64,000 nucleotides of DNA from an uncultured virus (IMG/VR IMGVR_UViG_3300028764_000001) (taxonomy: Duplodnaviria; Heunggongvirae; Uroviricota; Caudoviricetes), in the IMG/VR virus record IMGVR_UViG_3300028764_000001, one strand, 5' to 3'. The translations under genes were made by a program, and so were the position numbers. The notes under the pieces were generated by a model, which saw nothing but the letters and a program-made list of their open reading frames with translations, was not told the origin of the DNA and ran no database searches. Shown piece by piece: positions 4,550-45,259 of the stretch; position 1 is the stretch's first letter, and every line of letters starts with the position of its first letter.

Positions 4550-4563
4550 TACTACTAACCTGT

Positions 4564-4591
4564 AATGGGAGGACTTAATTGTTCTCCCATT
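4564..4591 (+). other. Intergenic hairpin in front of polA
   Basis: aatgggaggac-ttaatt-gttctcccatt inverted repeat; no strong U-tract. Confidence 0.55.
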
Positions 4592-4606
4592 CGTCACCTT
4601 ATAAAC

Positions 4607-7319: not shown

Positions 7320-7358
7320 AGAATTTCTATAAACTATTAATATATAAACAAAAACATT

Positions 7359-7769: not shown

Positions 7770-7781
7770 TAAAGTAAAGTC

Positions 7782-8582
7782 ATGAGAGCAGAGAAGGAAG
7801 ACAAAACTAAAAAGAAGAAGTTATCTACAGGTGGTAAAACTGCCCGTGAGAAAATGATGGACCGGAAAAAAGACCTTGAAAAACGTAGTGCAGGTGGTGG
7901 ATTCATATTCCCAAAAGTTGGTACAACAAGGCTACGCCTAAAGTCACCAGGTGATGATGAAGAATTAGCCATTGAGGTAATTCAGTTCTACCTGGGTAAA
8001 GAATTGGGTGGTGTGGTATCCCCAGCAACATTTGATGAACCCTGTCCATTTATGGATAAGTACAAAGAACTAAAGGATTCAGATGATGATGATGACAAAG
8101 CATTAGCAAAACGTCTGGTACCTAAAAGGAAGTATGCAATTGGGTGTGACTCTTACAAGGACGAAAAGGGTAAAGAAGTTGATCAAACTGACAAAGCAGT
8201 ACTTGTTGCAAGAGGTGCTTACCAGGACATTACTGAACTCTACCTTGATGAGGATGAGTGGGGGGATATGACTGATAAAAAAGAAGGGTATGATATTAAA
8301 ATTATCAGAACTGGGGTTGGCCAACTAGATACATCTTATTCTGTATCACCTTGCCAAAAGAAAGCATTACCCAAAGACCGTTCAAATACTTGCGACCTTG
8401 AAAAAATTGTAAGGTCACAAATTCCTTCATTTGAGGAACTTGAGGATACACTTGCTAAGTTCTTAAACTCAGGTGAGGATGGGGATGCTCCAGCAAAAAA
8501 ACCCAAGGATAGTAAATCCAGGGACAAGTTCAAAGAAGGTCTAAAGGACAAAAAGAAAAAGAAAAGAGTAAGAGATATTTAA
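7782..8582 (+). CDS. Putative single-stranded DNA-binding protein (gp32-like)
   Basis: EGYDIKIIRTGVGQLDTSYSV pattern; position just before RecA. Confidence 0.65.
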   Translation: MRAEKEDKTKKKKLSTGGKTAREKMMDRKKDLEKRSAGGGFIFPKVGTTRLRLKSPGDDEELAIEVIQFYLGKELGGVVSPATFDEPCPFMDKYKELKDSDDDDDKALAKRLVPKRKYAIGCDSYKDEKGKEVDQTDKAVLVARGAYQDITELYLDEDEWGDMTDKKEGYDIKIIRTGVGQLDTSYSVSPCQKKALPKDRSNTCDLEKIVRSQIPSFEELEDTLAKFLNSGEDGDAPAKKPKDSKSRDKFKEGLKDKKKKKRVRDI

Positions 8583-8608
8583 TCCTACCCTAATAAAACA
8601 ACAACTAG

Positions 8609-8642
8609 TAAGGGGCGGTATATTATATGTCGCCCCTTATTT
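8609..8642 (+). terminator. Intrinsic terminator-like hairpin
   Basis: taaggggcggtata...tatgtcgcccctta followed by ttt. Confidence 0.65.
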
Positions 8643-8664
8643 CATGTACTAAACAAAAAGATTC

Positions 8665-9813
8665 ATGGCAAAGAAAACTAAGATAGGTATAACCATACCT
8701 ACAAAAAATGAGTTAATGAAAAGGTACCCTGGGATGTCAGTAGCTTCTGAAAATGATGATGATAGATACCCAAGAATACCATCAAGGCATTTAGCCTTCA
8801 ATTACCAAACAGGGGGAGGTCTTCCATATGGTAAAATCATGGAGATATATGGAGAAGAGTCTTCAGGTAAATCTCTAATGGCCTATGATTTCGCTTATGT
8901 AACCCAAGCATTAGGTGGAGTAGTTCTAATAGCAGATGCAGAACAAGCATTCACTAATGCCTGGGCAATAGCAAATGGATTAGATTTAACAAGGATAATA
9001 AGGTTACCTTCAACAGTAGTTGAAGAGATATCTGATTGGCTTGCAGATATGGCAATATATTGGAGATCACAATTAACCCACAATGAACCCATATTATTCA
9101 TATTAGACTCAACTGCTGCGTTGGATTGTATGGTAAATATCAATTCAAAAATGGTAGACTCTAAAGCCGATATGGGTAATAGAGCAAAAGCTATTTACAA
9201 GATGCTAAGGGTACGTTCTGAGTTAATGTTTAAACTAGGTGTATCACAGATATACATTAACCAATTAAGAAAGAATCTAAAAGCTGGTATGTTTGAGAAT
9301 CCTGATACTACACCAGGAGGCGGTGCAATGAAGTTTTATGCTTCTATACGTATTGCTTTTTATGGTGGTAAACAAATCCTTGAAAAGATAAAAGGTAAAG
9401 ATAGGAAAGTAGGCAGGGTAACTTCAATAAGGGTTATGAAAAATAAAGTTGGGCCCCCAAGGGGAACTATAAAGGGTGCACCCATGTATTTCAACCAGGA
9501 TGGTAAAAAAGATATTGGCTTTGATAAGTATTATTTTTTATCCGACTCATTACTAGAAGCCGGTGCTATAAGCAAAAACAATGGTGGTACTTACTCTATA
9601 AAGGGTGTAACTTTATGTAGGGGGGATGAGAAATTCCTTGCATTAATTGAAAAAGATGATGATCTTCGTAGGAAGTTATTACGTAAAGCTAATATCAATA
9701 CTATCAGCACTACAAGAAAGAAAATTGAAGGCTTAGGAGTTAACCTATTTCCAGTAGGTAATGTAAAGTATACGTCACAGGTAAAGGAGGCTGATGAGAA
9801 TGAAGATGAATAG
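8665..9813 (+). CDS. recA: RecA/UvsX recombinase
   Basis: GGLPYGKIMEIYGEESSGKS, DAEQA, ILDS, INQLR, TPGGGAMKFYAS, KNKVGPP. Confidence 0.97.
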   Translation: MAKKTKIGITIPTKNELMKRYPGMSVASENDDDRYPRIPSRHLAFNYQTGGGLPYGKIMEIYGEESSGKSLMAYDFAYVTQALGGVVLIADAEQAFTNAWAIANGLDLTRIIRLPSTVVEEISDWLADMAIYWRSQLTHNEPILFILDSTAALDCMVNINSKMVDSKADMGNRAKAIYKMLRVRSELMFKLGVSQIYINQLRKNLKAGMFENPDTTPGGGAMKFYASIRIAFYGGKQILEKIKGKDRKVGRVTSIRVMKNKVGPPRGTIKGAPMYFNQDGKKDIGFDKYYFLSDSLLEAGAISKNNGGTYSIKGVTLCRGDEKFLALIEKDDDLRRKLLRKANINTISTTRKKIEGLGVNLFPVGNVKYTSQVKEADENEDE

Positions 9814-10702
9814 TTTATTAATAATTGATGGAGAAAATCTATTACACAGGGCATACCATAAGTTCTTAGGCTTCAAGTCTACTGAAGGAGTTCCAACTGG
9901 TGCAATATATGGTTTTCTAAAGATCCTACACTCTAATATATTTAGGTTCAAGCCTGAATATGTTATTGTTACATTTGATAATGGCAGATCAAAACATAGG
10001 ACTAACATACTTCCAGGTTATAAGACACGACCTAAAAAACTGGGTATGGATTATGAGTCATTACAAAAACAAAAAAAGTTGATAATGAAGATCCTTAGAA
10101 GGTTGGGAGTACCTTATGTATTTGATAAATCATTCAGTAATGAATGGGAGGCTGATGATTACATTGCTTACTTAGCTAAAACCTTTGAGGGTGAAGTAAC
10201 TATACTATCCTCTGACAAAGATTTTCACCAACTGATATCTAAAAGGGTAAAGGTAATGAGCCCATCTAAAGACCAATTAATCACTGAAGTTAATTGCATA
10301 AAGTTAACTGGGTATAATCCTGACCAATGTGTTGATTGGTTATCAATGGTGGGGGATGAATCCGATAGCATACCCGGCTATAGAGGCATTGGAGAAGTAA
10401 AAGCTACTGCATTACTTAAGAAATATAACTGTATAGAGAAATTTATAATGGGCGATTACAAAGAAAGTAGGGTAAATAAGCAAACACTTAATGAAGTAAT
10501 GACTAAGAATAGGCACCTTATTGATCTTAACTTCTTTATAAGAAAATACCCAATGGTAAAAAACATACCCATAAAATATGGGAAGGATGAATTTATAAAC
10601 AGGAAGCTAGTAACCATGTTTAATGGGTACTCTCTATCCTCATTCCAGTCTACTGAATTTATAAACACCTTTAAAGAATTAAGCAAATGGAAAGTAAAGT
10701 AA
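9806..10702 (+). CDS. 5'-3' exonuclease / flap endonuclease
   Basis: LIIDGENLLHRAYH, EADDYIA, SSDKDFHQL, GDESDSIPGYRGIGEVKA. Confidence 0.95.
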   Translation: MNSLLIIDGENLLHRAYHKFLGFKSTEGVPTGAIYGFLKILHSNIFRFKPEYVIVTFDNGRSKHRTNILPGYKTRPKKLGMDYESLQKQKKLIMKILRRLGVPYVFDKSFSNEWEADDYIAYLAKTFEGEVTILSSDKDFHQLISKRVKVMSPSKDQLITEVNCIKLTGYNPDQCVDWLSMVGDESDSIPGYRGIGEVKATALLKKYNCIEKFIMGDYKESRVNKQTLNEVMTKNRHLIDLNFFIRKYPMVKNIPIKYGKDEFINRKLVTMFNGYSLSSFQSTEFINTFKELSKWKVK

Positions 10703-11337
10703 AACGTATTATGTTTGTGGGTCCCAGTGGGATAGGCAAGACCCACCTATCCAAGTTTATTGCAGATAAATATGGTATACCATTCATAAGTGGTTCATAC
10801 TCTGATATGGTACCATCAACTAAAGATCAAAGCCATGCTGATATGGTAAGCAAGGATTCAAAGGTAATTTATAATGAAGATTATAAGTTGCTATGGGCAA
10901 GGGCAAAGGTATACTTAGGCTATACTACTAAAGGTTTAAGTTTTGTAACCGACAGGTCATATATTGATAGCATTGCATATTTCATATACAAACTTTCAAA
11001 AGTAATACCCAAGTGTGAAATTGAAGGTTTTGAACATGCAGCAAAAATGCTATTATTCAGGGACTGTACCCACCTAATTGTAATGCAATGTACTGAATCA
11101 ATGGTTGATACCTGGAGAGTTGAAAATAATGAAAAGAGGATATTAAATACATATTTCCAGTGGATGGTATCTATGGTAATGATAGGAGTACTTAAAAGAT
11201 TGGGCTTAAGAACTGGTAAATACTTTGGCCATACATACAGTTACATGCCAATGGGTATAAAAGTACTTGTTTTAAATAACAGGAACATGGAGAATAACAA
11301 AGTACTAATCAGTAAATTCTTGGGCAATGTCAAATAA
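10687..11337 (+). CDS. P-loop kinase, putative dNMP kinase
   Basis: GPSGIGKT Walker A; FVTDRSYIDSIAY matches the TMK/AAA_28-like DRS motif. Confidence 0.75.
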   Translation: MESKVKRIMFVGPSGIGKTHLSKFIADKYGIPFISGSYSDMVPSTKDQSHADMVSKDSKVIYNEDYKLLWARAKVYLGYTTKGLSFVTDRSYIDSIAYFIYKLSKVIPKCEIEGFEHAAKMLLFRDCTHLIVMQCTESMVDTWRVENNEKRILNTYFQWMVSMVMIGVLKRLGLRTGKYFGHTYSYMPMGIKVLVLNNRNMENNKVLISKFLGNVK

Positions 11338-12346
11338 AAGACCCATAGCAATTGCTTTCTCAGACTTACACCTGAATATCTGGACTAAGTTTAACAAAGA
11401 CAACAGCAGAACAATGAACCAGTTCGAGGTTCTTCACTACATAAGAAAGCAATGTATAAAAAAGAAGGTTCCGGCCTTCTTTCTTGGTGATATGCTACAC
11501 AAACCCGAGAGCATCGATAGTGACCTATTCAGGCTTATAATTGAAGAGTTTATTAGGCTAAACACAGAACCCCTTTGGAACTGCTTCTTCATTGAAGGCA
11601 ACCATGAGATAAAGAATAAGAACCAATTGGTAACACTTGGCCAAGGCACTGCCCATACTGATAAGCCATCAGTCTATACCTCACCTGGTATAGTGTCATC
11701 GCTATCAAAAATATTCAACTTTCTAAATCCCATAAATGGGTACGTAGGTTTATATGGTGGATATAAGGTTTGGGGTATATCCTACCTTGACCATAACCAA
11801 GGTTTGAATAAACACTTAACTGAAATAATACTAAGGTTTAATCAGCATGATAAGAACATCCTATTACTACATACAGATTACCCAGGTGCAAAAGATACTG
11901 ATGGTTCTGAAGTTGGTTCAAGTGAAAATATCAATGTAAACCTTATCAATAAATTTGATCTAGTATTATGTGGCCACATACATAAACCACAAAGGCTTTC
12001 AAAAAAGGTATACATGATTGGTGCACCCATCCAACAAAGGAGGACAGATAGGAATTGTGAAATGGGTTATTGGGTAATATACAATGACCTATCTGTTAAG
12101 TTTAAATCCCTTGCAAAGAAGTTCCCCAAATTTATAGATGTTGAAAAGGAAGAAGGTATTAAAGATGATTATAACTATTACACAGTAATTCCTAAGCATA
12201 TTCTAGTAAACACAGATACTAAGAGTAATAGAATTACTGCTAATCTTTCTAAAACTAAACTAGCAAAGAAGTATATGCGTGAAAAAGGCATCAAAGATAA
12301 AGACAAATCAAGGTTACTAACTAAACTACTGAAAGACAATGATTAA
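11327..12346 (+). CDS. Mre11/SbcD-like metallophosphoesterase nuclease
   Basis: SDLH, LGDMLH, EGNHE, LLHT, CGHIH; adjacent to the Rad50-like gene. Confidence 0.92.
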   Translation: MSNKRPIAIAFSDLHLNIWTKFNKDNSRTMNQFEVLHYIRKQCIKKKVPAFFLGDMLHKPESIDSDLFRLIIEEFIRLNTEPLWNCFFIEGNHEIKNKNQLVTLGQGTAHTDKPSVYTSPGIVSSLSKIFNFLNPINGYVGLYGGYKVWGISYLDHNQGLNKHLTEIILRFNQHDKNILLLHTDYPGAKDTDGSEVGSSENINVNLINKFDLVLCGHIHKPQRLSKKVYMIGAPIQQRRTDRNCEMGYWVIYNDLSVKFKSLAKKFPKFIDVEKEEGIKDDYNYYTVIPKHILVNTDTKSNRITANLSKTKLAKKYMREKGIKDKDKSRLLTKLLKDND

Positions 12347-14054
12347 GTTTGGGAAACTAATAATAAAAGGCTTCTGCTCTATCCAGGATTATGAAATTGA
12401 TCTTGATGGGGGGCATATAACTATTATACGAGGAGAAAATGGAGTAGGTAAAACTACGCTCCTATCAGCAATAACATGGGTACTCTATAATAAGACAGCT
12501 AAGGAAGATGCTAAAGACGTAAACACATGGAAAGAAAGAAGGCCAAAAGATTACAGGGGTACTAGTGTAGAGATATACTGGAATAATGGTACAACACTAC
12601 ACCAAGTAATTAGGTGTTCTAACTATGGTGAAAAAGTACATGGCTCAAAGGGTGCTAATAGGCTGATATATCTAATAGAAGGCGTAGAGGTTAAGAATAA
12701 AAGGAAGGATGAGATACAGGCCCTAATTGAAGCTAACCTTACACTATCCTACTCTCTATTCAAGAACTCTATCATGTTTGGCCAGGGCCTAAAGAGATTA
12801 ATACAAGAATCTGGTACAGAGAAAAGGAAACTATTCGAAGAAGTATTCGATGTAAGCTACCTATCAGTAGTAAGAACAGTTGCACAAAAGGAAAGGGACA
12901 AGATAAAAGAAGAACTTAGTTTAATAACAAATCCTTTAAATACAATGAGGGCTAGTTATGAAACTAATAAAGAAACCTACCTAGAACTAAAAGCAAGAGA
13001 ATCAAATCAAGCAACTGCTATAGGTGAAGAACTTGAGGAATATATAACTCAACTAAAGGAAATAAAAAGAACTTTAAGAAGGTACGACCCAGAGATTGAA
13101 AAGTCACTAGCTAAGGCTACTGAAAAAAAGGTCCGGCTTAAAGAACAACTAGAAGAGTTACGAGAAAATTATAACTCTAACAAAAAAAAGGTATCAGATG
13201 TAACTTCAGTTAAAGGCTTAGGTAGTTTAGTAAAAGAGATTATTGGGTTAATCATAATAAACCCTCACTTGGCAATATCAAAGTTAAAAGAACTTGAATC
13301 GGCAATAGTTGAAATGAATAACTACCATGATGAGTATGAAAGGCTTAATAATAAGCTTATTAGCATAAGAGATGAAGAAAATGAGTGGCATAACATAGTT
13401 GAGAAGAATAAGAAGAACCTGGAAATAGCTAATACTATAGAAAAGAAAATTGACATAATCAAGAATGCCAAGTTAGAAGTACTTTCTCCTAAGTATAAAG
13501 AGAAGTATTTGAAATACAAAGAGGAGATAAGAGTTCTGGAAAAGAAGTTATTACCTATTGAAAAGCAACTCAATGATTATAATTGGGTAATAGATGATCC
13601 ACTTGGTAGCAACGGGATCAAGTCATATATATTTGAATCATCAATGGATGGTATAAATGATATACTAATGCAATATGCTGATACCCTGGGATTAAGAATA
13701 GAATTTGGGGTAGACCTATCAAATACAAGGAAGGACTTTTATACACTAGTAGAGATAGGTGGTATAGTAGTTGATTATGCTGATTTATCCGGTGGCCAAA
13801 AGCAATTAGTTAATCTTGCTATGGCTTTTGCAATGTGGGAATCCACTTCTAGTACAAAAGATATTAATATACTATTTCTAGATGAAGTATTTGAAAGCTT
13901 ATCTAGAAGTAATATCGAAATAGTGGTAGACCTTATAAAGCAATTGTCTAAGGGCAAGAGCATATACATCATCACACACCAGGAAAACCTACCCCTTAGC
14001 AATGCTAAGATCTTAAACCTAGACTCTAAGAATGGTCTAACTACCTTTAACTAA
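12339..14054 (+). CDS. Rad50/SbcC-like SMC ATPase
   Basis: GENGVGKT, central coiled coil, LSGGQ signature, LFLDE, ITH. Confidence 0.95.
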   Translation: MIKFGKLIIKGFCSIQDYEIDLDGGHITIIRGENGVGKTTLLSAITWVLYNKTAKEDAKDVNTWKERRPKDYRGTSVEIYWNNGTTLHQVIRCSNYGEKVHGSKGANRLIYLIEGVEVKNKRKDEIQALIEANLTLSYSLFKNSIMFGQGLKRLIQESGTEKRKLFEEVFDVSYLSVVRTVAQKERDKIKEELSLITNPLNTMRASYETNKETYLELKARESNQATAIGEELEEYITQLKEIKRTLRRYDPEIEKSLAKATEKKVRLKEQLEELRENYNSNKKKVSDVTSVKGLGSLVKEIIGLIIINPHLAISKLKELESAIVEMNNYHDEYERLNNKLISIRDEENEWHNIVEKNKKNLEIANTIEKKIDIIKNAKLEVLSPKYKEKYLKYKEEIRVLEKKLLPIEKQLNDYNWVIDDPLGSNGIKSYIFESSMDGINDILMQYADTLGLRIEFGVDLSNTRKDFYTLVEIGGIVVDYADLSGGQKQLVNLAMAFAMWESTSSTKDINILFLDEVFESLSRSNIEIVVDLIKQLSKGKSIYIITHQENLPLSNAKILNLDSKNGLTTFN

Positions 14055-14090
14055 TTAAACTATTAATAACTAAACAAACACAAACATGGG

Positions 14091-14636
14091 ATGGCACGAA
14101 TTAACTCAAAAGCTAAGGGATCAAAAAATGAAAGAGATACCTGTAAGTGGTGGAAAGATTGGACAGGATATGAATTTAGTAGAGTGCCCTCTAGTGGTGG
14201 GCTTAGGTGGTCCCGTACAACGGATACTACGGGAGATATCATCTGTTCAGATAACAAACACTATCTCAGGTTCCCCTTTAGTATTGAGTGCAAAAACTAT
14301 AAGGAAATTAATTTTGAGCATATCCTATTGGGAACAAAGGGAGCAAAAGTCCTCCAATTCTGGAATCAAGCTCTTGAAGATGCGGAGAGGGGGAACAAGC
14401 TTCCTATCCTAATGATGAGGTATAATGGGATGAAAAAGGGAGATTACTTCTTTGTAGTTGATGAACAATTTGGGGGAATACTAATTGATACCATGCCACA
14501 TGAGGATGTAAATGTAATGCTTATAAATGCTAAACATATAAAGCTGATGATTGTAATGGCATCTGATATCATTAAGTATGCTGATTACGCTAAAGTATAT
14601 AAAGAGTCAAGGAAACGATTAAAAGCTAAGAAATGA
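14091..14636 (+). CDS. Holliday junction resolvase (Hjc-like PD-(D/E)XK)
   Basis: NSKAKGSKNER...PSSGG...GDII...SIECK. Confidence 0.85.
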   Translation: MARINSKAKGSKNERDTCKWWKDWTGYEFSRVPSSGGLRWSRTTDTTGDIICSDNKHYLRFPFSIECKNYKEINFEHILLGTKGAKVLQFWNQALEDAERGNKLPILMMRYNGMKKGDYFFVVDEQFGGILIDTMPHEDVNVMLINAKHIKLMIVMASDIIKYADYAKVYKESRKRLKAKK

Positions 14637-29258: not shown

Positions 29259-29289
29259 TTTGATTATTGAATAAAATGTATTATATTTG
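29259..29289 (+). promoter_or_regulatory. Bacteroidetes sigma-A-type promoter
   Basis: TTTG (29259), 19-nt spacer, TATATTTG (29282). Confidence 0.85.
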
Positions 29290-32727: not shown

Positions 32728-32758
32728 TTTGTATATTCAATATATTATATTAATTTTG
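32728..32758 (+). promoter_or_regulatory. Bacteroidetes sigma-A-type promoter
   Basis: TTTG (32728), 19-nt spacer, TAATTTTG (32751). Confidence 0.8.
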
Positions 32759-34656: not shown

Positions 34657-34687
34657 TTTGATAATTCAGTATTTATATGTATATTTG
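34657..34687 (+). promoter_or_regulatory. Bacteroidetes sigma-A-type promoter
   Basis: TTTG (34657), 19-nt spacer, TATATTTG (34680). Confidence 0.85.
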
Positions 34688-37140: not shown

Positions 37141-37420
37141 AGGTACCTTAAATGAGGCCTCAAAAAGGCCTTTTCAGAGCTTTTTACTAGGGTAAAGCTA
37201 AGGGTAAAAAGGCAGAGGATTGGTGAGGATTAAGGTACATTTAAGGCCCATAGGATTCGATGTTTTAAGGCCCAAATGTCACCAGCTATGGCCCCTTAGG
37301 ATGTAGGCTTAGGCCATAAATTAATAAGGGAATAAGGCCTTTATTAGCCCCATTAGGAAGTAAATTTATTCACCATGGATGGCCCCAAAGGTAAAAGGTA
37401 TTAAGGAAATATGGCCTATA
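37141..37420. repeat. Non-coding GGCC array 1 (9 sites)
   Basis: GGCC at 37156, 37167, 37245, 37269, 37290, 37312, 37336, 37381, 37413. Confidence 0.85.
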
Positions 37421-38478: not shown

Positions 38479-38669
38479 AAATGATCTTAGTGATTTATCC
38501 AATACCCTGGTCTAGGGTAAGGCCAATGCCCATAATAGTATTTGCCTCAGGTATGGTATTAATAATCCTTCCAGCATGGCTATTCCAATTATCAGTTAAG
38601 GAACAGAATGAGACTATAGAATCATATAAACCTTTAAACATTACACCTCATGAAGAAGACATCACCTAA
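38475..38669 (+). CDS. Small membrane protein
   Basis: ATGA overlap; hydrophobic core. Confidence 0.5.
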   Translation: MKMILVIYPIPWSRVRPMPIIVFASGMVLIILPAWLFQLSVKEQNETIESYKPLNITPHEEDIT

Positions 38670-38774
38670 GAATGAACTGGGCTTTGGCATTATAATACTT
38701 ATCATTGCCATCTGCTGTATACTTGCATTTACTTAAAGTGTTCACTACACTGACAAAGGCTACCTAAGCCTTAT

Positions 38775-38822
38775 TAGGATCTTGAGTTTTTAGTCATTCT
38801 CAAGATCCTATTTTTGTGTGTG
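38775..38822 (+). terminator. Intrinsic terminator with TTTTTGTGTGTG tail
   Basis: taggatcttgag...ctcaagatccta followed by tttttgtgtgtg. Confidence 0.85.
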
Positions 38823-38858
38823 AAAGCCACTAGCTATGCACTTGCTTCGGAAGGTTCA

Positions 38859-38941
38859 GGCCTTTATATGCTCCGTAGATGGCCCTAATGTTATTTTGTA
38901 TTTAGAGGCAAGGCCTACATCTCAGGCTTACCTTTAGGGCC
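38859..38941. repeat. Non-coding GGCC array 2 (4 sites)
   Basis: GGCC at 38859, 38881, 38912, 38938. Confidence 0.7.
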
Positions 38942-38950
38942 CTAATTAAA

Positions 38951-38982
38951 TTTGTATATATGAAATAAAATGATTATATTTG
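38951..38982 (+). promoter_or_regulatory. Bacteroidetes sigma-A-type promoter
   Basis: TTTG (38951), 20-nt spacer, TATATTTG (38975). Confidence 0.85.
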
Positions 38983-39027
38983 TAGACTATAATAATATAG
39001 TAACAACAATTTTAAAAATGACTAATT

Positions 39028-39444
39028 ATGCAAAACCTACAAAATTTTACCCAACTCCTTGCCCAACAAATCCTGGATAACCCAGTACCAGACATGGATG
39101 ATGCCCTAACCTCTGAAGGACAGATCATAATGGACTTCCCTGGTTACTCAAGTATGGAACTATCTGTAATACTGGTTGAACACTCTACACCAATGGGTCT
39201 CTCACTTGCCATACTCTTAACCGAGGACGATACCGAAGAAAATACTAACTTCTATACTGAACTCTACGAAGGTATTCTCACCATCGCTGCCATACTAAGG
39301 GACTACCTAGAATCCATCTTTTCAGAAAATACCAACTCTGATGCCTGCTCATTCTCTATAAACTGGGACACTCACCATGGTGCTCAACCTGGGGAAGACG
39401 GACTTTGGGAACTAACCCTGAATATAACGGATTACCTTTCATAA
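39028..39444 (+). CDS. Very acidic early protein (no Lys, one Arg)
   Basis: 138-aa monocistronic cassette, D/E-rich. Confidence 0.75.
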   Translation: MQNLQNFTQLLAQQILDNPVPDMDDALTSEGQIIMDFPGYSSMELSVILVEHSTPMGLSLAILLTEDDTEENTNFYTELYEGILTIAAILRDYLESIFSENTNSDACSFSINWDTHHGAQPGEDGLWELTLNITDYLS

Positions 39445-39465
39445 CCAGCTACCTAGCTACCTACA

Positions 39466-39502
39466 AAAGGTACCCTTATTACTTGGGTACCTTTCTTGTG
39501 TG
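39466..39502 (+). terminator. Intrinsic terminator with TTGTGTG tail
   Basis: aaaggtaccc...gggtaccttt followed by cttgtgtg. Confidence 0.8.
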
Positions 39503-39529
39503 ATTACCTTTCAAACCCACTAGCTACAG

Positions 39530-39790
39530 GTGTTAGGCCTTCAGCATCTGGCCTTATAGAACTCAGGATGAGGGGCCTTATTGAATCCATTGATGGCCTT
39601 TTTCTAAAAGCCACCGGCTACGAGGGCCCAGCGGTAAAGATTAGGCCCTATTGGGATTTAAAGCTTTCTCCATCTATGGCCCTGCCCAGGCATAAGGAGC
39701 ATGGGATTTAGGGGATAAAGTATAGGCCTTAGATGGATAGAGATAAGGTACCTAAACCTTTCAAAGCCAGGAGCTAAGGCATCGTAACCA
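39530..39790. repeat. Non-coding GGCC array 3 (8 sites)
   Basis: GGCC at 39536, 39550, 39574, 39595, 39625, 39644, 39678, 39725. Confidence 0.85.
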
Positions 39791-40015
39791 CAACGCATTT
39801 CCCAATATGCATGTAATAAAAATATGTCATTTTTTAATGTCATTTTGTTGTATTCTTTTAACTATTACATTAATGTTTTTTAACTGTCAAAATAATTTAT
39901 ATTTAAAAAAATAAACTACTTTTGAAATGTCAAACGGACAAAGATTTTTCTTTTTTACTTTGTACTGATTACAAAAACGCTCTTTGAATTTTTTTATTTA
40001 TTTTTTATCAAAAAA

Positions 40016-40046
40016 ATATCTATTAAAAAGAAAAACTATATATTTG
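40016..40046 (+). promoter_or_regulatory. Bacteroidetes sigma-A-type promoter
   Basis: TATATTTG at 40039-40046. Confidence 0.7.
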
Positions 40047-40082
40047 ATTTTTTATAAAACAACAATCTAAATTTAAAAAAAA

Positions 40083-40598
40083 ATGACTACATTAAGCAGT
40101 GACTCAAAAAACGTTATTAATGCAAATAACGAAATTTCAAAAGCAATTGAAACAAGTTTAAAAAAATCTACTAATAAAGTAGAGAAAAAAGAAGTTGTAA
40201 AAAAAGATTTGAAAAAAGAAGCTACAACAACAAAAGCAAATGAGTATTTGCTTTCTATGCTAGATAAAAGTTTATTTGTTTCTAATTCGGGAATGAGTAA
40301 AGAAAATATTTATAAAGCTTCTATTTTTGCAACATGCATTACTGACAGAGATAAAAAAACAATCCGTAGAAAAATACGCAATAATATGGATAGTTTTATT
40401 AGTTCTTTTATTTCGTATGAAACAAATAAAAATACTGATAAAATTAAAAAACTATTGACTGCATTTAAAGACTTTTACACAAATGTATATTCTTTAAATG
40501 ATTATTCATTAAATAGTTTAATTAGTGCGAACACTGATACTGTAAAAAAGGATAATGTTATTAAAATGCTTTCAATTATCAAAAAGTATGACAAATAG
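40083..40598 (+). CDS. Basic early protein, paralog of 32069..32575
   Basis: LDKSLF...ENIY...RRKIRNNMDSFISSFI...VYSLNDY...KMLSIIK. Confidence 0.85.
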   Translation: MTTLSSDSKNVINANNEISKAIETSLKKSTNKVEKKEVVKKDLKKEATTTKANEYLLSMLDKSLFVSNSGMSKENIYKASIFATCITDRDKKTIRRKIRNNMDSFISSFISYETNKNTDKIKKLLTAFKDFYTNVYSLNDYSLNSLISANTDTVKKDNVIKMLSIIKKYDK

Positions 40599-40610
40599 TT
40601 TTATCATTCA

Positions 40611-40651
40611 AATAACAACATACATAGTGTATGTTGTTATTATTTCTTTTT
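40611..40651 (+). terminator. Intrinsic terminator built without GG/CC
   Basis: aataacaacatac-atagt-gtatgttgttatt followed by atttcttttt. Confidence 0.75.
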
Positions 40652-40694
40652 ATCTAATTAATTTAGTAGTTAAGCATTTTAATAATAAAAAAGC

Positions 40695-40952
40695 ATGAAT
40701 ATAAATAATGATATTAATTTAGAACAACATTCAATATATAAAGATTTTGTTAAACAATATAATATTACATTGCTATCTTTTTATATTGATTTGAATTGTA
40801 GTGTAATGTTATTTAGTTATGATAATTTAGATATAAAATATCAATTGAATAAAGATTTATTCATACATGAAATATCTATTTATTTTGATTGTTTAGATAT
40901 TGAATTGATAAATATTTGTAGTGATAAATTCTTATTATCAATTGAATTTTAA
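40695..40952 (+). CDS. Hypothetical protein lacking Gly, Pro and Trp
   Basis: 85-aa ORF with no GG or CC dinucleotide. Confidence 0.6.
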   Translation: MNINNDINLEQHSIYKDFVKQYNITLLSFYIDLNCSVMLFSYDNLDIKYQLNKDLFIHEISIYFDCLDIELINICSDKFLLSIEF

Positions 40953-40972
40953 ATTATTATTAAATCAATTTT

Positions 40973-41030
40973 AAAGTACATTTAAAGGACTATTATTAAT
41001 GTCCCCTATAAATGTACTTTAATTTTTTTT
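40973..41030 (+). terminator. Intrinsic terminator-like hairpin
   Basis: aaagtacattta...taaatgtacttt followed by aatttttttt. Confidence 0.7.
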
Positions 41031-41201
41031 ATATGCAAACACCGTCCCCCTATTCCACACAGAGATCCCACACTGCCTCGTATAAGGTTCGAACCCATTA
41101 GGTGATACCCTCCCAATGATTACCTTCCCACTATCCTACCAAGCCCACTTCCCATAAAAAATATCCAGCACTTTTCATCCCTCGTATAAGCTCTCTTACC
41201 T

Positions 41202-41244
41202 CACACAAAAAAGGTAGAGTTAACTTCCCAGTCTACCCTACCTT
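41202..41244 (-). terminator. Minus-strand terminator with TTTTTTGTGTG tail
   Basis: The reverse complement reads aaggtagggtagact-ggga-agttaactctacctt followed by ttttgtgtg. Confidence 0.75.
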
Positions 41245-41299
41245 ATAAAATCAATCCAGATCTTTTACTCAACCGTTGTTCAAATAATATTCAAAAAAA

Positions 41300-41545
41300 T
41301 CAAATTATGCGGGGTTTCCTAAACCCTTTGGATATTAATATAGTCAATATCATTCCCACCAATATAACCTCTAGCAAAGGAGAGAATACCCAAATAGTAA
41401 TCAAGGATAACATACTCAATGTATCTTGCTTTATCCCCTTTCTCCTTACTCCCCCATCCATAAAGAAAAGAAAAGTAACAAATACCAACCCTATAATATA
41501 GCCTAACCATAGGCATATCATACCAAACGTATATAGAGCTCCCAT
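41300..41545 (-). CDS. Small membrane protein (2 TM)
   Basis: Two hydrophobic helices; start overlaps the upstream stop. Confidence 0.6.
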   Translation of the reverse strand: MGALYTFGMICLWLGYIIGLVFVTFLFFMDGGVRRKGIKQDTLSMLSLITIWVFSPLLEVILVGMILTILISKGFRKPRII

Positions 41546-42087
41546 TATACTAAGGATTGTTCTATGAGTTTAACTAATAACTTTGCTCTAGAGGTTACCT
41601 CAGTCTTCCCATGGGCACTAGTGTGAGATGAGTAATCACCCTGTCCTGGTTTAATACCTCGGTAGTAGGTACATTCCTCTTTGGTAAGGATCTCATGTAC
41701 CTGGGTCTTTTCATATACATTTGAACCATCATCCCCAAAGGTTAATTTCTCTGGTAACATTTCCCATAGTTCCCCTGAGGTATATGCAGGGATTAAAGGG
41801 ATATCCTCATACCAATCACTTTCATCTACCATACACCATACCTCTTTGGTATTAGGTTCTAGGAAGTATTCATGCTTTTCAGTAGGACTAAGTTCCTTAA
41901 CCCTCCAGAAGTTAGCTGGCATAAAATTGTTGAACTTCCCTGAACCATATATCTTCATACATAATTCTGGATTTAAAATACCCTGTTCTAATCCCATAGT
42001 AGGGGTAGCCAATTGGTCATAATCTAAGGTTTCATCTGGCTTGTATGCCGATAGATGAAACCTTACTGGTTTTGTTTTAGCTTCCAT
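41545..42087 (-). CDS. Hypothetical protein
   Basis: IPAYTSGELWEMLPEKL...SRAKLLVKL pattern; 180 aa. Confidence 0.75.
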   Translation of the reverse strand: MEAKTKPVRFHLSAYKPDETLDYDQLATPTMGLEQGILNPELCMKIYGSGKFNNFMPANFWRVKELSPTEKHEYFLEPNTKEVWCMVDESDWYEDIPLIPAYTSGELWEMLPEKLTFGDDGSNVYEKTQVHEILTKEECTYYRGIKPGQGDYSSHTSAHGKTEVTSRAKLLVKLIEQSLV

Positions 42088-42181
42088 AAGAATAAGTTTA
42101 TTAATTAGTAATACAATTTAATTATAAGACAAAGAAAATTACTAGAACACTATTTAGATTATGCAGGATTTACCCTTTTAT

Positions 42182-42649
42182 TCAATCTGGCATATCTATT
42201 TTTCTATAATGGGTAACCAATGAATCTGATATACCCCACCTTTCCGGCCCCCAAGTAAGGAATACCATACAATTAGAGGTTTTAGTTACAAGGTACCTCC
42301 CATAATCATCAGGGTAATGGCCCTTTAACTGAGGTTCATATTCTATCCAATCAGTTTCATGTCTGATTGGGATAGAATAAGCCTCACATTTCTTGTAGTG
42401 GATAGCTTTAGCCATCCCTTGGTTAACTATTAGGTCTAAATCCTTTACCATACCCAAGATTAAGTCATATTGACTCTTCTCATGGAAGTATAAAGGGCCA
42501 TATTTTATAAGAAAGGCCTTATAAGCAGAGGTCAAAGAGAATTTAGGGTCCCTTTTAATGGATTTGTCCACTACTAATACAACTCTTTCTAAGACTGATA
42601 AATGATTATCAGACATTAGGATGGTAGTTATAGCATCTGTTTTATTCAT
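42182..42649 (-). CDS. Hypothetical protein with C-terminal DUF551-like segment
   Basis: DWI...PDDYGRYLVT...VTHYRKIDMP. Confidence 0.6.
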   Translation of the reverse strand: MNKTDAITTILMSDNHLSVLERVVLVVDKSIKRDPKFSLTSAYKAFLIKYGPLYFHEKSQYDLILGMVKDLDLIVNQGMAKAIHYKKCEAYSIPIRHETDWIEYEPQLKGHYPDDYGRYLVTKTSNCMVFLTWGPERWGISDSLVTHYRKIDMPD

Positions 42650-42980
42650 TACCCTTAATCTCTTTAGCCCACTCTTCTAGCCATTGAACTACATTAGTAT
42701 CCTCAGGTGTATCAAATTTAAAACTAAATGTAATAGTTTCAGGATTTTCTAGGCTTAATTCCTTAACTTTAGCTAAATACCAAGCCTCTTTATCCAAATC
42801 CTGCTGAATAAGGCTAAGACTTAAACCTTTTAAGCCAATTCTCATCCTGTATTTAAATGCATTCATTATACAGAAGTCAATGGTACTCTTGTAACCCCAG
42901 ATATTTAACATCATATCAATTACTTCTACTGGGTACTGGTTATAGTGAGATGGGTGATTTACTTGTTCTTCTTTACTCAT
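42642..42980 (-). CDS. DUF3310 protein (T7 gp1.7-like nucleotide kinase family)
   Basis: EQVNHPSHY...EVID...NAFKYRMRIGLK...QDLDKEAWYL. Confidence 0.85.
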   Translation of the reverse strand: MSKEEQVNHPSHYNQYPVEVIDMMLNIWGYKSTIDFCIMNAFKYRMRIGLKGLSLSLIQQDLDKEAWYLAKVKELSLENPETITFSFKFDTPEDTNVVQWLEEWAKEIKGNE

Positions 42981-42982
42981 AA

Positions 42983-43666
42983 TTAAAATGTTGTATCATA
43001 GGTTATATCATCAAATACAATAGGTACCAGTTTCTGGAACTGTCTTAATAATGGGCACATGAGTTCCCTCATCTGTGGATGAGCTACCTTTTGAGCACGT
43101 TGTTTGAAAATAGTTCTCCATTCCCTTAGGTTAGCAGTAATCACTATCTCAGTTTTCAGTGCATTAGGTAATACTGATCTAGCTTCCTGAGCAACCCAAC
43201 CTTCTTTTAATAAATCCAGGTAAACCTGTTCACTGTTAGACATTGAGTGATACCATAATTTGGTAACCCTATCAATCTTCATGTAGTTGTGTTCATTGAG
43301 GATTTTAACTAAGTCAAGTTGTTCATCACTAAGCCAGAATGGCTGGATGAATGTAAGCTCATTACCAAACTTTTCCTTTGCATAATTACAGTACCTTGTA
43401 CTTTCCTGGGAAAATGACGCAATTCGATGACGTACTAATTCATGGGAGATACCCCGGTCACATACAAATAAAACTGAAATTGACTGATGTTCTAGTACTG
43501 ATTCATGGCCAAGTTGTATTAACTTAGCAATAAACTTCTCAGCACTTTCATCAGTAATAAGTTCTTCACTCTTGTAACAGGTTCTTCCTGCACGTTCAAT
43601 GCTCTGTATAATTGTCTTGCCATTAATATCTGACAAGATCTGGGTAGATGGTTTAATTAATTTCAT
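42983..43666 (-). CDS. thyX: Flavin-dependent thymidylate synthase
   Basis: GHESVLEH, RGISHELVRHRIASFSQESTRY, ARSVLP, NLREWR, AHPQMR. Confidence 0.97.
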   Translation of the reverse strand: MKLIKPSTQILSDINGKTIIQSIERAGRTCYKSEELITDESAEKFIAKLIQLGHESVLEHQSISVLFVCDRGISHELVRHRIASFSQESTRYCNYAKEKFGNELTFIQPFWLSDEQLDLVKILNEHNYMKIDRVTKLWYHSMSNSEQVYLDLLKEGWVAQEARSVLPNALKTEIVITANLREWRTIFKQRAQKVAHPQMRELMCPLLRQFQKLVPIVFDDITYDTTF

Positions 43667-43667
43667 G

Positions 43668-44102
43668 TTATGTTATTATTATGTTAAACTTCTTGGATAA
43701 TTTCTTTAGCTTCTTGTAGATTGTCACTGTATCTTCTCTGGCAAGAGAATCAATACCAGTTGATATTGCATTCAACAGTGTTTTCATACTCTGTTTTGCA
43801 ATGCGGTATTGATATTCTTTCTCTACTTCATCACTCCATAATTTATATGTAGCATTAACATTGGTTACACCCAAACGGGTTAATACTCCATTAGAGTGAA
43901 TTATGGCTGATAATTTAACTTGGTTACCAAGCAAGGCTACCTTAGTTTCTCGGTTAACCTCTTTTACAAAAGACTTATCAACTGTATATTGAGTAACGCA
44001 TAATATTTCATCTCCAATACGAAGTAATACTTCCGGAGCTTTTACAAAAGGAATTTTTGGTGTATCCCGTACAACCATAGAGTTTTTCTTCTTCTTTGCC
44101 AT
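43668..44102 (-). CDS. Hypothetical protein
   Basis: 144-aa ORF heading the minus-strand block. Confidence 0.7.
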   Translation of the reverse strand: MAKKKKNSMVVRDTPKIPFVKAPEVLLRIGDEILCVTQYTVDKSFVKEVNRETKVALLGNQVKLSAIIHSNGVLTRLGVTNVNATYKLWSDEVEKEYQYRIAKQSMKTLLNAISTGIDSLAREDTVTIYKKLKKLSKKFNIIIT

Positions 44103-44215
44103 GTTCTAGTTAGTTTATTAATTATATATAACAATATGATCAGGGTAGTACCAACTAGAAAACTATTTGCAATACCACTATGGCCATATATATAATAATA
44201 ACTAACTCATTCTAT

Positions 44216-45259
44216 ATGAATAAACTTAGAGTACTTGGAGTATGCCAAGGGCAAGGTGCGTTACTCTTCCCACTTAGAAAGCACCTAATTGGTAATGTAG
44301 AACCAAGGGGATGTTTCCATACACCAAATGAAGAACAATGGAGGATAAACTTCGGGGATATACCATTTGTACGCAAGATTGATCAACTAAATCTACCCAA
44401 ATATGTTGATATTATAATAGGTTCACCTAACTGTGGTACTAGCAGTATACTATCCTACTCTCGTAAGAAGACCCTGGGCAAACCAAAAGAGGATGAAAGC
44501 ATCAATACCTTCATTACTATAACCCAGCAATTACAACCTAAGGTATTCCTTATGGAAAATCTACCAAAGCTTTTAGACTTCATAACACAAGGAGAATGGG
44601 AAACTCTATTCCTGGATTATGACTTAATCTTCCATACATCTTCAGTAATGGAGTATGGCAATTCCCAAAAGAGTAGGGTAAGGCTTACATTAATAGGTGT
44701 TCGAAAAGGCTTGTCTAGTTTTAAATTAGAAGCATTCCAAAGAGTTTTCAAAGTACGTGATGTTAAGTTTACTAGAGAGCTTCTAGAAGACACTAGGTTA
44801 TTACCTAAATTCTTTCCAATGAATGGAAACATACGGGAATTAAGTTCTCATAAAGTTTGTATGTATGATTATCGAGATGGCCTTAAAACTAAACTGGGCC
44901 TCAAAGAGATAAAGAAATTATGGGTAGGCGATTTTAAGGAGTGTTATAAATGGCCAATCAATTCTGCTAAGATGAAAACCCTACCTGGTGTTTATCGTAA
45001 TAAACCAGATGGGTACCCTATGACTGCTAGAAAACAAGATAGGCAGTTTAAACCAAACGGTGAGATCATGAGCCCAGCTGAATTAGCTGTAATCCAGGGT
45101 TATCCATTGAAGTATAAAATATACTGCATTGATACTGATACTAAGGAAAGGAACTATTGGATTAATAAAGGTAGGGTATCAATCACTAAGGGTCCCTCCT
45201 ATGAAATAGGGTTATGGTTTAAAAAATGTCTACGGAAATCCCTCCTCGCGGGCGTCTAA
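44216..45259 (+). CDS. Divergent DNA cytosine-C5 methyltransferase-fold protein
   Basis: Motif I variant VLGVCQGQGA, IV IIIGSPNCG, VI FLMENLP, VIII QKSRVRLTLIG, IX ELAVIQGYP; motif X is atypical. Start ATG 44216. Confidence 0.8.
   Translation: MNKLRVLGVCQGQGALLFPLRKHLIGNVEPRGCFHTPNEEQWRINFGDIPFVRKIDQLNLPKYVDIIIGSPNCGTSSILSYSRKKTLGKPKEDESINTFITITQQLQPKVFLMENLPKLLDFITQGEWETLFLDYDLIFHTSSVMEYGNSQKSRVRLTLIGVRKGLSSFKLEAFQRVFKVRDVKFTRELLEDTRLLPKFFPMNGNIRELSSHKVCMYDYRDGLKTKLGLKEIKKLWVGDFKECYKWPINSAKMKTLPGVYRNKPDGYPMTARKQDRQFKPNGEIMSPAELAVIQGYPLKYKIYCIDTDTKERNYWINKGRVSITKGPSYEIGLWFKKCLRKSLLAGV

Follow-up and report, generated by a model that had tools for sequence, protein, structure and literature searches.

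Organization of the locus

The window, which is the whole stretch of 64,000 nucleotides analyzed here, contains an AT-rich island that carries two plus-strand ORFs, each followed by a hairpin. The island and the features within and beside it are as follows.

39536..39729, no strand assigned: array of GGCC-core palindromes, 8 motifs with the consensus TAWGGCCYTWA, adjoining the left edge of the island
39790..41040, no strand assigned: the island, 1251 bp, GC 0.198, without RCC/GGY and distinct from the remaining genome in its dinucleotide signature
39790..40082, plus strand: AT-rich leader, 293 bp, GC 0.177, with -7 promoter-like boxes and an A-rich run before the ATG
39917-39924, plus strand: -7 promoter-like box TACTTTTG in the leader
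40039-40046, plus strand: -7 promoter-like box TATATTTG in the leader
40083..40598, plus strand: ORF1, 171 aa; its N-terminus is disordered and rich in Lys, its C-terminal domain helical and conserved
40611..40650, plus strand: ORF1 hairpin terminator, a 14-pair stem at 40611-40641 with a 3-nt loop and a T-rich tail
40695..40952, plus strand: ORF2, 85 aa, GC3 0.09, an uncertain gene
40971..41031, plus strand: second hairpin, with 18-nt arms that are 94% complementary at 40971-41022, then a T run
41036..41260, no strand assigned: right flank, C-rich and non-coding, about 67-75% identical to the closest relative, L092
about 41205-41244, minus strand: terminator-like hairpin within the right flank

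Plus-strand ORFs extend to 40952 and minus-strand ORFs occupy 41300-44102, in agreement with the first-pass annotation of this DNA, which had placed the island where transcription from the two strands converges. A C-5 cytosine methyltransferase gene is found at 44180-45259, and the island is located about 5 kb upstream of the terminase genes. Only 3 of the 14 pairs in the ORF1 terminator stem are G-C, and the stem sequence bears out the earlier observation that this terminator is built without GG or CC. At the right island edge, the plus-strand unit is predicted to end with the second hairpin. A tRNA scan and an Rfam search over 38500-42200 gave no match, nor did a DNA search of a phage collection with 38800-42200.

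The predicted structure of the ORF1 product has a mean pLDDT of 73.9, rising above 90 for residues 80-170. A Foldseek search of this model against the PDB returned no match at E up to 0.001; matches in BFVD were limited to two uncharacterised gut myovirus proteins, and those in the ESM Atlas to unnamed viral clusters. The best Z for ORF1 from VIA-align wide, 6.5, was under the level that is meaningful for helical bundles, and DUF5106 was rejected as a candidate for ORF1 (18.6 bits vs a cut-off of 28). Pfam and PHROGs assigned no family to ORF1 or ORF2.

Base composition and edges of the island

The GC content of the island is 19.8%, as compared to about 35-36% elsewhere. In 100-bp windows, GC is 0.44-0.51 immediately outside the edges and 0.17-0.23 immediately inside them, and the boundaries are thus as abrupt as had first been claimed. 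The difference is not confined to base content. The island has a rho(CG) of 0.80-0.82, compared to 0.26-0.27 in coding and intergenic DNA elsewhere, and a rho(GG/CC) of 0.29-0.93, compared to 1.39-1.68. Within a C-rich zone, the plus strand of the island has a G>C skew of +0.11. A search for iterons within the island revealed weak AT-rich repeats only.

Together, ORF1 and ORF2 encode one Gly and no Pro in 256 codons, as compared to 6.0% and 4.0% in bulk. Among 86 ORFs they have the lowest GC1 and Gly plus Pro content and the highest FYMINK share, and GC3 is lowest for ORF2 (0.09) and next lowest for ORF1 (0.16). Low GC3 does not by itself indicate high expression in this phage, as the GC3 of the major capsid gene is an ordinary 0.30. 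Low GC also extends to GC1 (0.25) and equally to the non-coding parts of the island. This AT pressure on GC1 and on non-coding DNA, together with the escape from the genome-wide dinucleotide bias, hints at a DNA-level property beyond an expression cassette.

Conservation of ORF1 and its low-GC setting

Relatives were represented by 78 TerL-anchored loci (L011-L088); in 41 of these the upstream flank is 9028 nt or longer. An ORF1 homologue was found in all 41, at TerL identities of 72-75%, in 40 with the window protein as query and in the last with a clade-specific query, at positions 4378-9028 nt upstream of TerL. Each of the 13 loci sampled has a low-GC island around the homologue (876-1620 bp, GC 0.20-0.26, flanks 0.28-0.37), and in this genome and two complete relatives the island is the sole stretch below 0.27 GC. 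Fourteen other flanking ORFs were tested and were not conserved there; the exceptions are TerL, the gene preceding it and the methyltransferase. With an E-value limit of 0.001, the ORF1 family comprises 499 representative clusters. ORF1 is the signature gene of the phage family and encodes a small, family-specific helical protein.

Across 12 lineages the GC of the island follows that of the flank and lies below it by a nearly constant amount, about 0.08-0.14, and in all 12 rho(CG) is higher in the island than in the flank. Both island edges are common to this phage and L092. Neither L092 nor any of the 78 TerL-anchored loci has ORF2, and a neighbouring 180-aa gene is also missing in L092; the surroundings of the island therefore do turn over.

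This pattern bears on whether the island is a recently acquired low-GC insert, such as a classical moron or another horizontally moved cassette. Sharp edges, a promoter and terminators of its own, deviant composition and codon use, and the loss or gain of ORF2 and the 180-aa gene between this phage and L092 are what such an insert would be expected to display. However, every relative with enough flank has both ORF1 and the low-GC setting, the island's GC tracks that of the flank, the edges are shared with L092, and two peptide patterns detected no ORF1 relative in species-representative bacterial and archaeal genomes. For ORF1, the foreign-insert reading is largely refuted by these comparisons, and we regard it as very improbable for the island. 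Foreign low-GC DNA without a conserved position, which the first-pass annotation had raised as the alternative to its own reading, does not describe an island that keeps its place in relatives. A compositionally deviant phage cassette need not be a recent import.

A trinucleotide void that follows mostly from composition

The island had been singled out for the absence of ACC, GCC, GGT and GGC from 39790-41040. A recount found none, and also agreed with the 18 sites counted by hand in bases 1-300. The nearest sites on either side, at 39787 and 41041, are 1254 bp apart; the runner-up gap is just 159 bp, both in the window and in the whole 80,045-bp genome. Across the window there are 2949 RCC/GGY sites (46.1 per kb), and in the window outside the island no trinucleotide is more over-represented than ACC/GGT (1.24 times its Markov expectation). 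The GG dinucleotides that remain in the island are at 39936, 40289-90, 40388, 40550 and 40987, and the CC dinucleotides at 39801-2, 40364 and 41003-5; every run ends in GGA or begins with TCC, as first described.

Several null models were applied. The island is expected to hold 12.2 sites under a mononucleotide model, which matches the dozen estimated earlier, and 7.0 under a first-order Markov model. No site-free outcome was obtained in 5000 mononucleotide shuffles or in 5000 dinucleotide-preserving shuffles. As a post-hoc control for the choice of pattern, 180 strand-symmetric trinucleotide patterns were considered, and in none of 4000 dinucleotide shuffles was any pattern with an expectation of at least 7.0 absent. 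With amino-acid sequences and position-specific base composition held fixed, the 768 coding bases are expected to contain 3.9 sites and contained none in 66 of 5000 resamples; the 477 non-coding bases are expected to contain 3.8-4.3. The void thus exceeds local composition, and the codon-aware null takes it close to chance. Even under this null it remains improbable, and some extra bias against GGY/RCC may be present in this phage.

The depletion covers GG and CC generally, with CCA/TGG found twice (9.8 expected) and AGG/CCT three times (9.9 expected). Nor is the void kept in relatives. Their islands carry 8-19 RCC/GGY sites per kb, and 482 sites were observed in total where 654 (mononucleotide) or 713 (Markov) were expected, a ratio of about 0.7 in a sum over 73 island segments from non-independent loci. 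L092 also has a 580-bp gap in RCC/GGY, spanning the leader and most of ORF1. The void is specific to this phage, the islands of relatives being only mildly low.

One explanation of the void is selection, with RCC/GGY as all or part of a modification or nuclease target that this segment must escape. The phage encodes, besides the C-5 methyltransferase, a divergent ThyA-like enzyme beside a pyrophosphohydrolase, and the absence of sites withstands the dinucleotide-preserving and pattern-corrected nulls, and ACC/GGT is over-represented in the rest of the window; the gap in L092 points the same way. The failure of the void to persist in relatives, however, argues against selected motif avoidance, as does the depletion of GG/CC beyond RCC/GGY. 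The few GG/CC that remain are accounted for by codon context, and the case is built on only 8 runs, two of them pairing with each other as the arms of a single hairpin. Selection for the void is accordingly considered quite improbable. The striking word void mostly follows from composition and should not be taken as evidence for a genome end or a modification-free zone.

Genome map and contig ends

The genome map closes as a circle of 80,045 bp, with the join at window positions 6412-14411, away from the island. Twenty-four sequencing runs are listed for this phage, all of them peat metagenomes, and contigs from three of four independent runs (X13, X15 and X19) cross both island edges. These observations bear on the proposal of the first-pass annotation that the island is a physical genome end, a first-injected segment or a pac site. 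Contig ends do cluster near the island. In a tally of 44 of the 80 listed ORF1-anchored loci, 40 were kept (contigs of 78-92 kb); the ORF1 homologue lies less than 2.5 kb from a contig end in 15 of these, where 2.3 would be expected if ends were uniform, and within 500 bp in 6, where 0.5 would be expected. The placement of the island 5 kb upstream of the terminase genes, near the methyltransferase gene and beside phased repeat arrays, is also suggestive. The pac site of P1 contains arrays of methylation-sensitive hexamers, of which the surroundings of the island are reminiscent.

The contig ends near the island are found on either side of ORF1, at distances of 12 to 2918 bp; they spread across about 3 kb and have no site in common. 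Five of six contigs checked have end overlaps, of 55, 55, 99, 101 and 119 bp, and the sixth has none; the overlaps are assembler-sized and differ in sequence, and one falls in an ordinary gene. Double-length contigs of 153-173 kb also occur among relatives. A genome end at the island is not supported, given the circular map, the bridging contigs and overlaps of just 55-119 bp at differing places in five complete relatives, and we judge the packaging or first-injection reading improbable.

Leader and promoters

The leader was searched with the Bacteroidota promoter consensus as quoted in PMC4747536. In the window, the leader contains Bacteroidota-type -7 boxes alone, with no full -33/-7 match, and a box TACTTTTGAA(A/G)TGT is common to this leader and that of L092. 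Full TTTG-N19-20-TAnnTTTG matches are found in the leaders of clades b and c. In the genomes G002 and G006 there are 4-5 full matches genome-wide, two of them in tandem in the island leader. A scan for sigma-70 promoters showed no excess over shuffles, and CTCGTATAA was not enriched as a genome-wide promoter word. Between the window and L092 the leaders have short matches only, while ORF1 is 68% identical. The RNA fold of the leader is weak (z +0.70), and that of the right flank gives z -0.77 on the plus strand and -1.97 on the minus strand; no structured RNA is claimed for either.

It had also been suggested that the segment must stay unmodified, for reading by unmodified host RNA polymerase or for evasion of modification-dependent nucleases. 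Reading by the unmodified host polymerase is plausible, given the sigma-A-type promoters present, but it would not be particular to the island, as other intergenic regions hold host-type promoters that are equal or better.

These parts are the basis for our preferred reading, held at about even confidence, that the island is a conserved, self-contained, host-polymerase-driven and probably early expression cassette. Its anatomy, composition, conserved position, promoter motifs and terminators are directly observed. The cassette would consist of one or more host-type promoters, a long unstructured AT-rich leader, ORF1 and its own terminator, with ORF2 and the second terminator as a putative lineage-specific extra in this phage, and it would end a block of small ORFs that also bears host-type promoters. 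When and how strongly the island is expressed, and why it is AT-rich, are matters of inference; host RNA polymerase would read it, probably early and strongly. The void would be a by-product of 20% GC, of two proteins nearly without Gly (GGN) and Pro (CCN), and of A/T-ending codons, and this phage would represent the extreme tail of a family-wide trend.

Flanking arrays and the possibility of a replication origin

The GGCC-core sites at the left edge are spaced 14-47 bp apart, several at 19-24 bp, and share only about 10 bp. An equivalent array of 4 sites adjoins the island of L092. Across the window, spacings of 19-25 bp between GGCC-core sites occur 10 times, as compared to 1.15 expected at random, and comparable arrays are found in two other intergenic regions, neither of which is beside AT-rich DNA. 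The right flank holds CCTCGTATAAG twice, 104 bp apart. A conserved word of this flank was found, among viral contigs, in this phage and L092 only.

The main rival reading makes the same element a replication origin of the T4 oriF/oriG type, either alongside its role as an expression cassette or as its chief role. In this model a promoter would fire into a sequence-nonspecific AT-rich unwinding element, the transcript would prime DNA synthesis from an R-loop, and the arrays at the left edge, as candidate sites, would bind an origin or regulatory protein. Strong tandem promoters followed by at least 110-150 nt of AT-rich leader, whose AT-richness and length are kept while its sequence is kept poorly, are consistent with this arrangement, as are the TAWGGCCYTWA-like sites that adjoin the island in both phages. 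The phage also has T4-like recombination and replication genes (UvsX-like, SbcCD-like, SSB and helicase), and the G>C skew and non-bulk dinucleotide signature could stem from a locally different mutational regime. On the other hand, about 60% of the island is coding and its conserved element is a protein, and the GGCC arrays recur away from AT-rich DNA. DnaA-box-like words are not enriched in the window (6 vs 9.6 expected), no recognisable initiator gene adjoins the island, and the cumulative GC skew, which is mostly positive, has no origin or terminus pattern centred on it; a short negative GC-skew zone surrounds the island in G002 and G006. An origin at this locus is considered possible but doubtful.

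A broader proposal joins the two functions. The island may be a replication-transcription landmark of the family, in which tandem host-type promoters lead into an AT-rich unwinding zone that overlaps the signature gene and is flanked by phased TAAGGCCTTA-like operator arrays, and in which frequent single-strandedness, from R-loops or heavy transcription, gives the DNA a mutational regime of its own. If so, this regime would be the reason that, in at least 12 lineages, the GC of the island remains some 10 points lower than that of the genome, and that neither the genome-wide CpG depletion nor the GG/CC excess extends to it. We offer this as a speculative and rather unlikely reading. The island is a concrete conserved landmark. 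The three complete genomes examined have one such low-GC island apiece; it carries host-type promoters and the signature gene, with phased palindromic sites next to it, and is a good starting place in the search for an origin, an early switch or a host-takeover protein.

Comparison with known systems

In PMC8008677, Flandersviridae are described as a candidate family of Bacteroides phages, and Flandersviridae-like phages as among the commonest uncultured phages of gut Bacteroidota. Their genomes are collinear, with a structural block that includes a sheath, a helicase and PolA, about 20 kb of ORFs, and monophyletic TerL and PolA (PMC8008677). The gene order found here fits this description: a structural block with a sheath gives way to a helicase and PolA module, and this in turn to a long run of small ORFs. 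The identity of TerL to the human-gut records MT835790 and MT121964, which carry no family label in GenBank, is 71-73%. This phage differs in being 80 kb and from peat, and no low-GC island is mentioned where section 18 of PMC8008677 describes the genomes of the family. A literature search retrieved no paper that joins Flandersviridae with AT-rich or with origin of replication; among those joining it with transcriptom, none looked, in the portions available, like an infection transcriptome. On gene order and TerL identity, the phage is best described as a Flandersviridae-like myophage of Bacteroidota.

The lambdoid morons described by Juhala, Hendrix and colleagues are reportedly autonomous promoter-gene-terminator units of deviant composition. 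They occur sporadically, as additions between genes that lie next to each other in related phages. The island resembles them in its own promoter and terminators, its sharp edges, and a composition and codon use unlike the flanks. However, ORF1 is present in all 41 relatives with enough flank, at a fixed place, while its neighbours change, and moron-like behaviour is seen for ORF2 only.

The first-step-transfer (pre-early) region of T5 is part of a long terminal repeat and occupies a fixed physical end of the genome. Both it and the island are segments with host-polymerase promoters and unusual word usage. Here, in contrast, the map closes as a circle and contigs run across the island; in the assembled contigs, terminal repeats did not go beyond assembler overlaps.

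Iteron origins, such as lambda ori and P1 oriR, have three or more phased repeats beside an AT-rich region, with an initiator gene (Rep or O-like) next to them, DnaA boxes, or both. The array of 8 short palindromes, which in several cases are 19-24 bp apart and which lie directly beside AT-rich DNA, resembles this arrangement. It differs in that its sites have only about 10 bp in common, arrays occur at two other places, no initiator is recognisable and DnaA boxes are not enriched.

A T4-type origin consists of a promoter directly upstream of an A+T-rich unwinding element (PMC3016281). At such an origin a persistent R-loop starts DNA synthesis, and a cloned fragment replicates autonomously in infected cells. 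Minimal T4 origins are about 100 bp with promoters of the MotA type, whereas the AT-rich zone here is 1.25 kb, is mostly gene, and has promoters of the host type. The likeness to T4 lies in promoter boxes followed by a leader of GC 0.177, in an AT-rich stretch whose composition is conserved while its sequence is not, and in the T4-like recombination genes that accompany it.

Anatomy of the island and extent of the void

The island occupies 39790-41040 (1251 bp) and is flanked on both sides by non-coding DNA.

Features of the island and its edges
Left edge: array of GGCC-core palindromes adjoining the island
39790-40082: AT-rich leader, 293 bp; -7-type boxes TACTTTTG (39917) and TATATTTG (40039), and an A-rich run ahead of the ATG; essentially unstructured as RNA (z +0.70)
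40083-40598, plus strand: ORF1, 171 aa
From 40611: ORF1 terminator hairpin, 14 pairs, then a T-rich tail
40695-40952, plus strand: ORF2, 85 aa
3' of ORF2: second hairpin, 18-nt arms, then a T run
41036-41260: right flank, C-rich and non-coding; contains a 104-bp duplication and, on the minus strand, a terminator-like hairpin

As the first-pass annotation claimed, the island is devoid of ACC, GCC, GGT and GGC (RCC/GGY); the void spans 39787-41041, or 1254 bp. Sites of this kind number 2949 in the window (46 per kb); the second-longest gap, in the window and in the whole genome alike, is 159 bp. The accompanying details were also correct: 18 sites in bases 1-300, eight remaining GG/CC runs that each read GGA or TCC, a terminator at 40611 built without GG or CC, abrupt boundaries (100-bp windows of GC 0.44-0.51 just outside vs 0.17-0.23 just inside) and converging strands, with plus-strand ORFs stopping at 40952 and minus-strand ORFs occupying 41300-44102.

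Because island GC is 19.8%, bulk site density, against which the gap is absurdly improbable, is the wrong null.

RCC/GGY sites expected in the island under composition-matched nulls
Mononucleotide composition: 12.2 expected; zero reached in 0/5000 shuffles
First-order Markov / dinucleotide shuffle: 7.0 expected; zero reached in 0/5000 shuffles
180 strand-symmetric patterns, allowing for post-hoc selection: expectation 7.0 or more; absent in 0/4000 dinucleotide shuffles
Codon-aware, coding 768 nt: 3.9 expected; zero in 66/5000 resamples
Non-coding 477 nt: 3.8-4.3 expected (expectation only)

The claim that composition leaves the void unexplained thus stands in part: the shuffles never reach zero, whereas the codon-aware null does so occasionally. 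Given the shuffle, pattern-corrected and codon-aware nulls, the void is real and somewhat in excess of composition, its basis being only eight GG/CC runs, two of them paired arms of one hairpin. The depleted class is really GG/CC in general and not RCC/GGY alone. The observed/expected ratio (rho) of GG/CC is 0.49 in the island vs 1.41 in the remaining window, and other GG/CC words are also scarce (CCA/TGG, 2 vs 9.8 expected; AGG/CCT, 3 vs 9.9).

Coding and dinucleotide composition

The 256 codons of ORF1 and ORF2 include one Gly and no Pro, compared with 6.0% and 4.0% in bulk genes. ACC is used in 0/17 Thr codons, GCC in 0/8 Ala codons, and AGG, the commonest Arg codon in bulk, not at all. Among 86 ORFs, the pair has the lowest GC1 (0.25) and Gly+Pro content and the highest FYMINK share, and ORF2 and ORF1 rank lowest and second lowest in GC3 (0.09 and 0.16). 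The island's non-coding parts are 17.7-18.2% GC.

Outside the island the genome is CpG depleted with GG/CC in excess, in coding and intergenic DNA alike (rho(CG) 0.26-0.27; rho(GG/CC) 1.39-1.68), whereas rho(CG) inside is 0.80-0.82 in both coding and non-coding parts. In all 12 lineages compared, which are related and not 12 independent events, the island exceeds its flank in rho(CG) and lies 0.08-0.14 below it in GC. Outside the island, GATC occurs at 0.61 of expectation, and no trinucleotide is more strongly over-represented than ACC/GGT. The phage encodes a C-5 cytosine methyltransferase (44180-45259). GC skew is negative (C-rich plus strand) around the island, at 22000-44000, as it is at 82-86 kb and 0-6 kb in G002 and 79-85 kb in G006, two complete genomes of relatives. 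Nearly all genes in these zones are on the plus strand, and the remainder of each genome has positive skew.

Conservation in relatives

Anchoring on TerL (terminase) brought in 78 diverged loci. The annotation's expectation that the island keeps its position was upheld in all 41 loci whose sequence extends 9028 nt or more upstream of TerL. An ORF1 homologue was found in 40 by tblastn with the window protein and in the 41st, L013, with a clade-specific query, which also detected it in L016 and L017 of the same diverged clade; the other loci without a match have too short an upstream flank. The homologue precedes TerL by 4378-9028 nt, and no other small flanking gene is conserved there in the TerL-anchored loci. 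The homologue sits in a low-GC island in 13/13 sampled loci (876-1620 bp; GC 0.20-0.26 vs flanks 0.28-0.37), which in two complete 86-kb relatives, as in this phage, is the sole stretch under 0.27 GC. That the island was recently imported is most improbable.

The void itself is absent from relatives, whose islands carry 8-19 RCC/GGY sites per kb; summed over 73 segments from non-independent loci, 482 sites were observed vs 654-713 expected. Selected avoidance of the RCC/GGY motif would account for the void, but this lack of conservation makes it very unlikely.

In L092, the nearest distinct relative (TerL 86-89%), the leader, both edges and ORF1 (63% identical) are present, and ORF2 and the 180-aa neighbour gene are missing. 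The L092 right flank (4527-4814) is about 67-75% conserved with 41036-41260, a stretch found in no phage besides these two. Within it CCTCGTATAAG occurs twice, 104 bp apart, and is no genome-wide motif.

ORF1 combines a disordered, Lys-rich N-terminus whose length varies with a helical domain predicted at high confidence. Its family comprises 499 representative clusters (E up to 0.001). It matched no named family in Pfam or PHROGs and no fold convincingly in structure searches, and two peptide patterns found no homologue in a species-representative set of bacterial and archaeal genomes.

Genome termini

The proposal of a genome end at the island is not supported: contigs from 3/4 independent runs cross both edges, with zero variant sites inside. 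End overlaps of 55-119 bp, at differing sequences, occur in 5/6 complete or near-complete relatives checked (none in the sixth) and are of the kind that assemblers produce from circular paths. Forty-four of 80 ORF1-anchored loci were tabulated, and the 40 from 78-92 kb contigs were used. In 15/40 no more than 2.5 kb separates the homologue from a contig end (2.3 expected), a clustering that would favour an end or pac site nearby. However, these ends are scattered 12 to 2918 bp from the homologue on either side, and are therefore read as breaks in the assembly graph where the sequence is variable and AT-rich. Judged from assembled contigs, a genome end or pac site at the island has very little probability, but a pac site may lie nearby. 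Some relatives' contigs are about twice genome length (153,360; 170,281; 171,784; 172,636 bp).

Phage and family

The phage is myovirus-like. A helicase, divergent ThyA-like enzyme, PolA, SSB, UvsX-like recombinase and SbcCD-like nuclease are followed by a long run of small ORFs of unknown function and the island; to its right are a short minus-strand cassette encoding ThyX and a DUF3310 protein, the methyltransferase, then TerL, portal, protease, capsid and sheath. This order fits that described for the candidate family Flandersviridae in section 18 of PMC8008677. A near-identical IMG/VR record overlaps the window's end and start, which closes the map as a circle of 80,045 bp. The phage was found in peat metagenomes. 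Its TerL shares 71-73% identity with human-gut records, and GenBank relatives at that level come from the gut of humans or rats, so the family would extend beyond guts. The ThyA-like protein (PF00303, E 1e-16) lies beside a pyrophosphohydrolase/dUTPase_2-like and a 309-aa protein (1990-4549), and ThyX and the DUF3310 protein at 42642-43666; this gene set could serve modified pyrimidine synthesis.

Promoters and upstream arrays

The Bacteroidota-type (host-type) -33/-7 consensus, as quoted in PMC4747536, was matched in full (TTTG, 17-22 nt, TAnnTTTG) four times in the window, a number equal to chance expectation.

Full promoter matches and GGCC-core arrays
29259-29289, 32728-32758, 34657-34687, 38951-38982, plus strand: promoter matches, intergenic, just upstream of small ORFs
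37245-37413, 38859-38938, 39536-39725; L092 2331-2540, 3644-3723: GGCC-core arrays

The placement of the matches (plus strand, intergenic, 29-39 kb) does not look random, and they mark the block of unknown small genes as a likely target of host polymerase. Island leaders in other clades carry full consensus promoters; in G002 and G006 the leader has a tandem pair out of 4-5 full matches per whole genome. The window and L092 leaders share the box TACTTTTGAA(A/G)TGT, with a -33 element that is 3-of-4 or none.

The GGCC-core palindrome (consensus TAWGGCCYTWA) forms three intergenic arrays in the window, 21 sites in total, with ten consecutive spacings of 19-25 bp vs 1.15 expected at random. Each array is upstream of an early-type transcription unit, one adjoining the island, and in appearance they resemble operators or iterons bound by a dimeric protein. 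Several runs have contigs that break at 39485-39695.

Interpretation of the island

We favour, with doubt and conviction about equally weighted, a conserved cassette for expression of a family signature protein, driven by the host polymerase and probably early, the void being a by-product. A plain gene cassette does not explain the island's dinucleotide oddity. The main rival, a T4-type origin, is possible though distinctly less probable. The minimal T4 origin consists of a promoter and an A+T-rich unwinding element, with no specific sequence required (PMC3016281). The leader matches that description in that, across relatives, its AT-richness is kept but its sequence is not.
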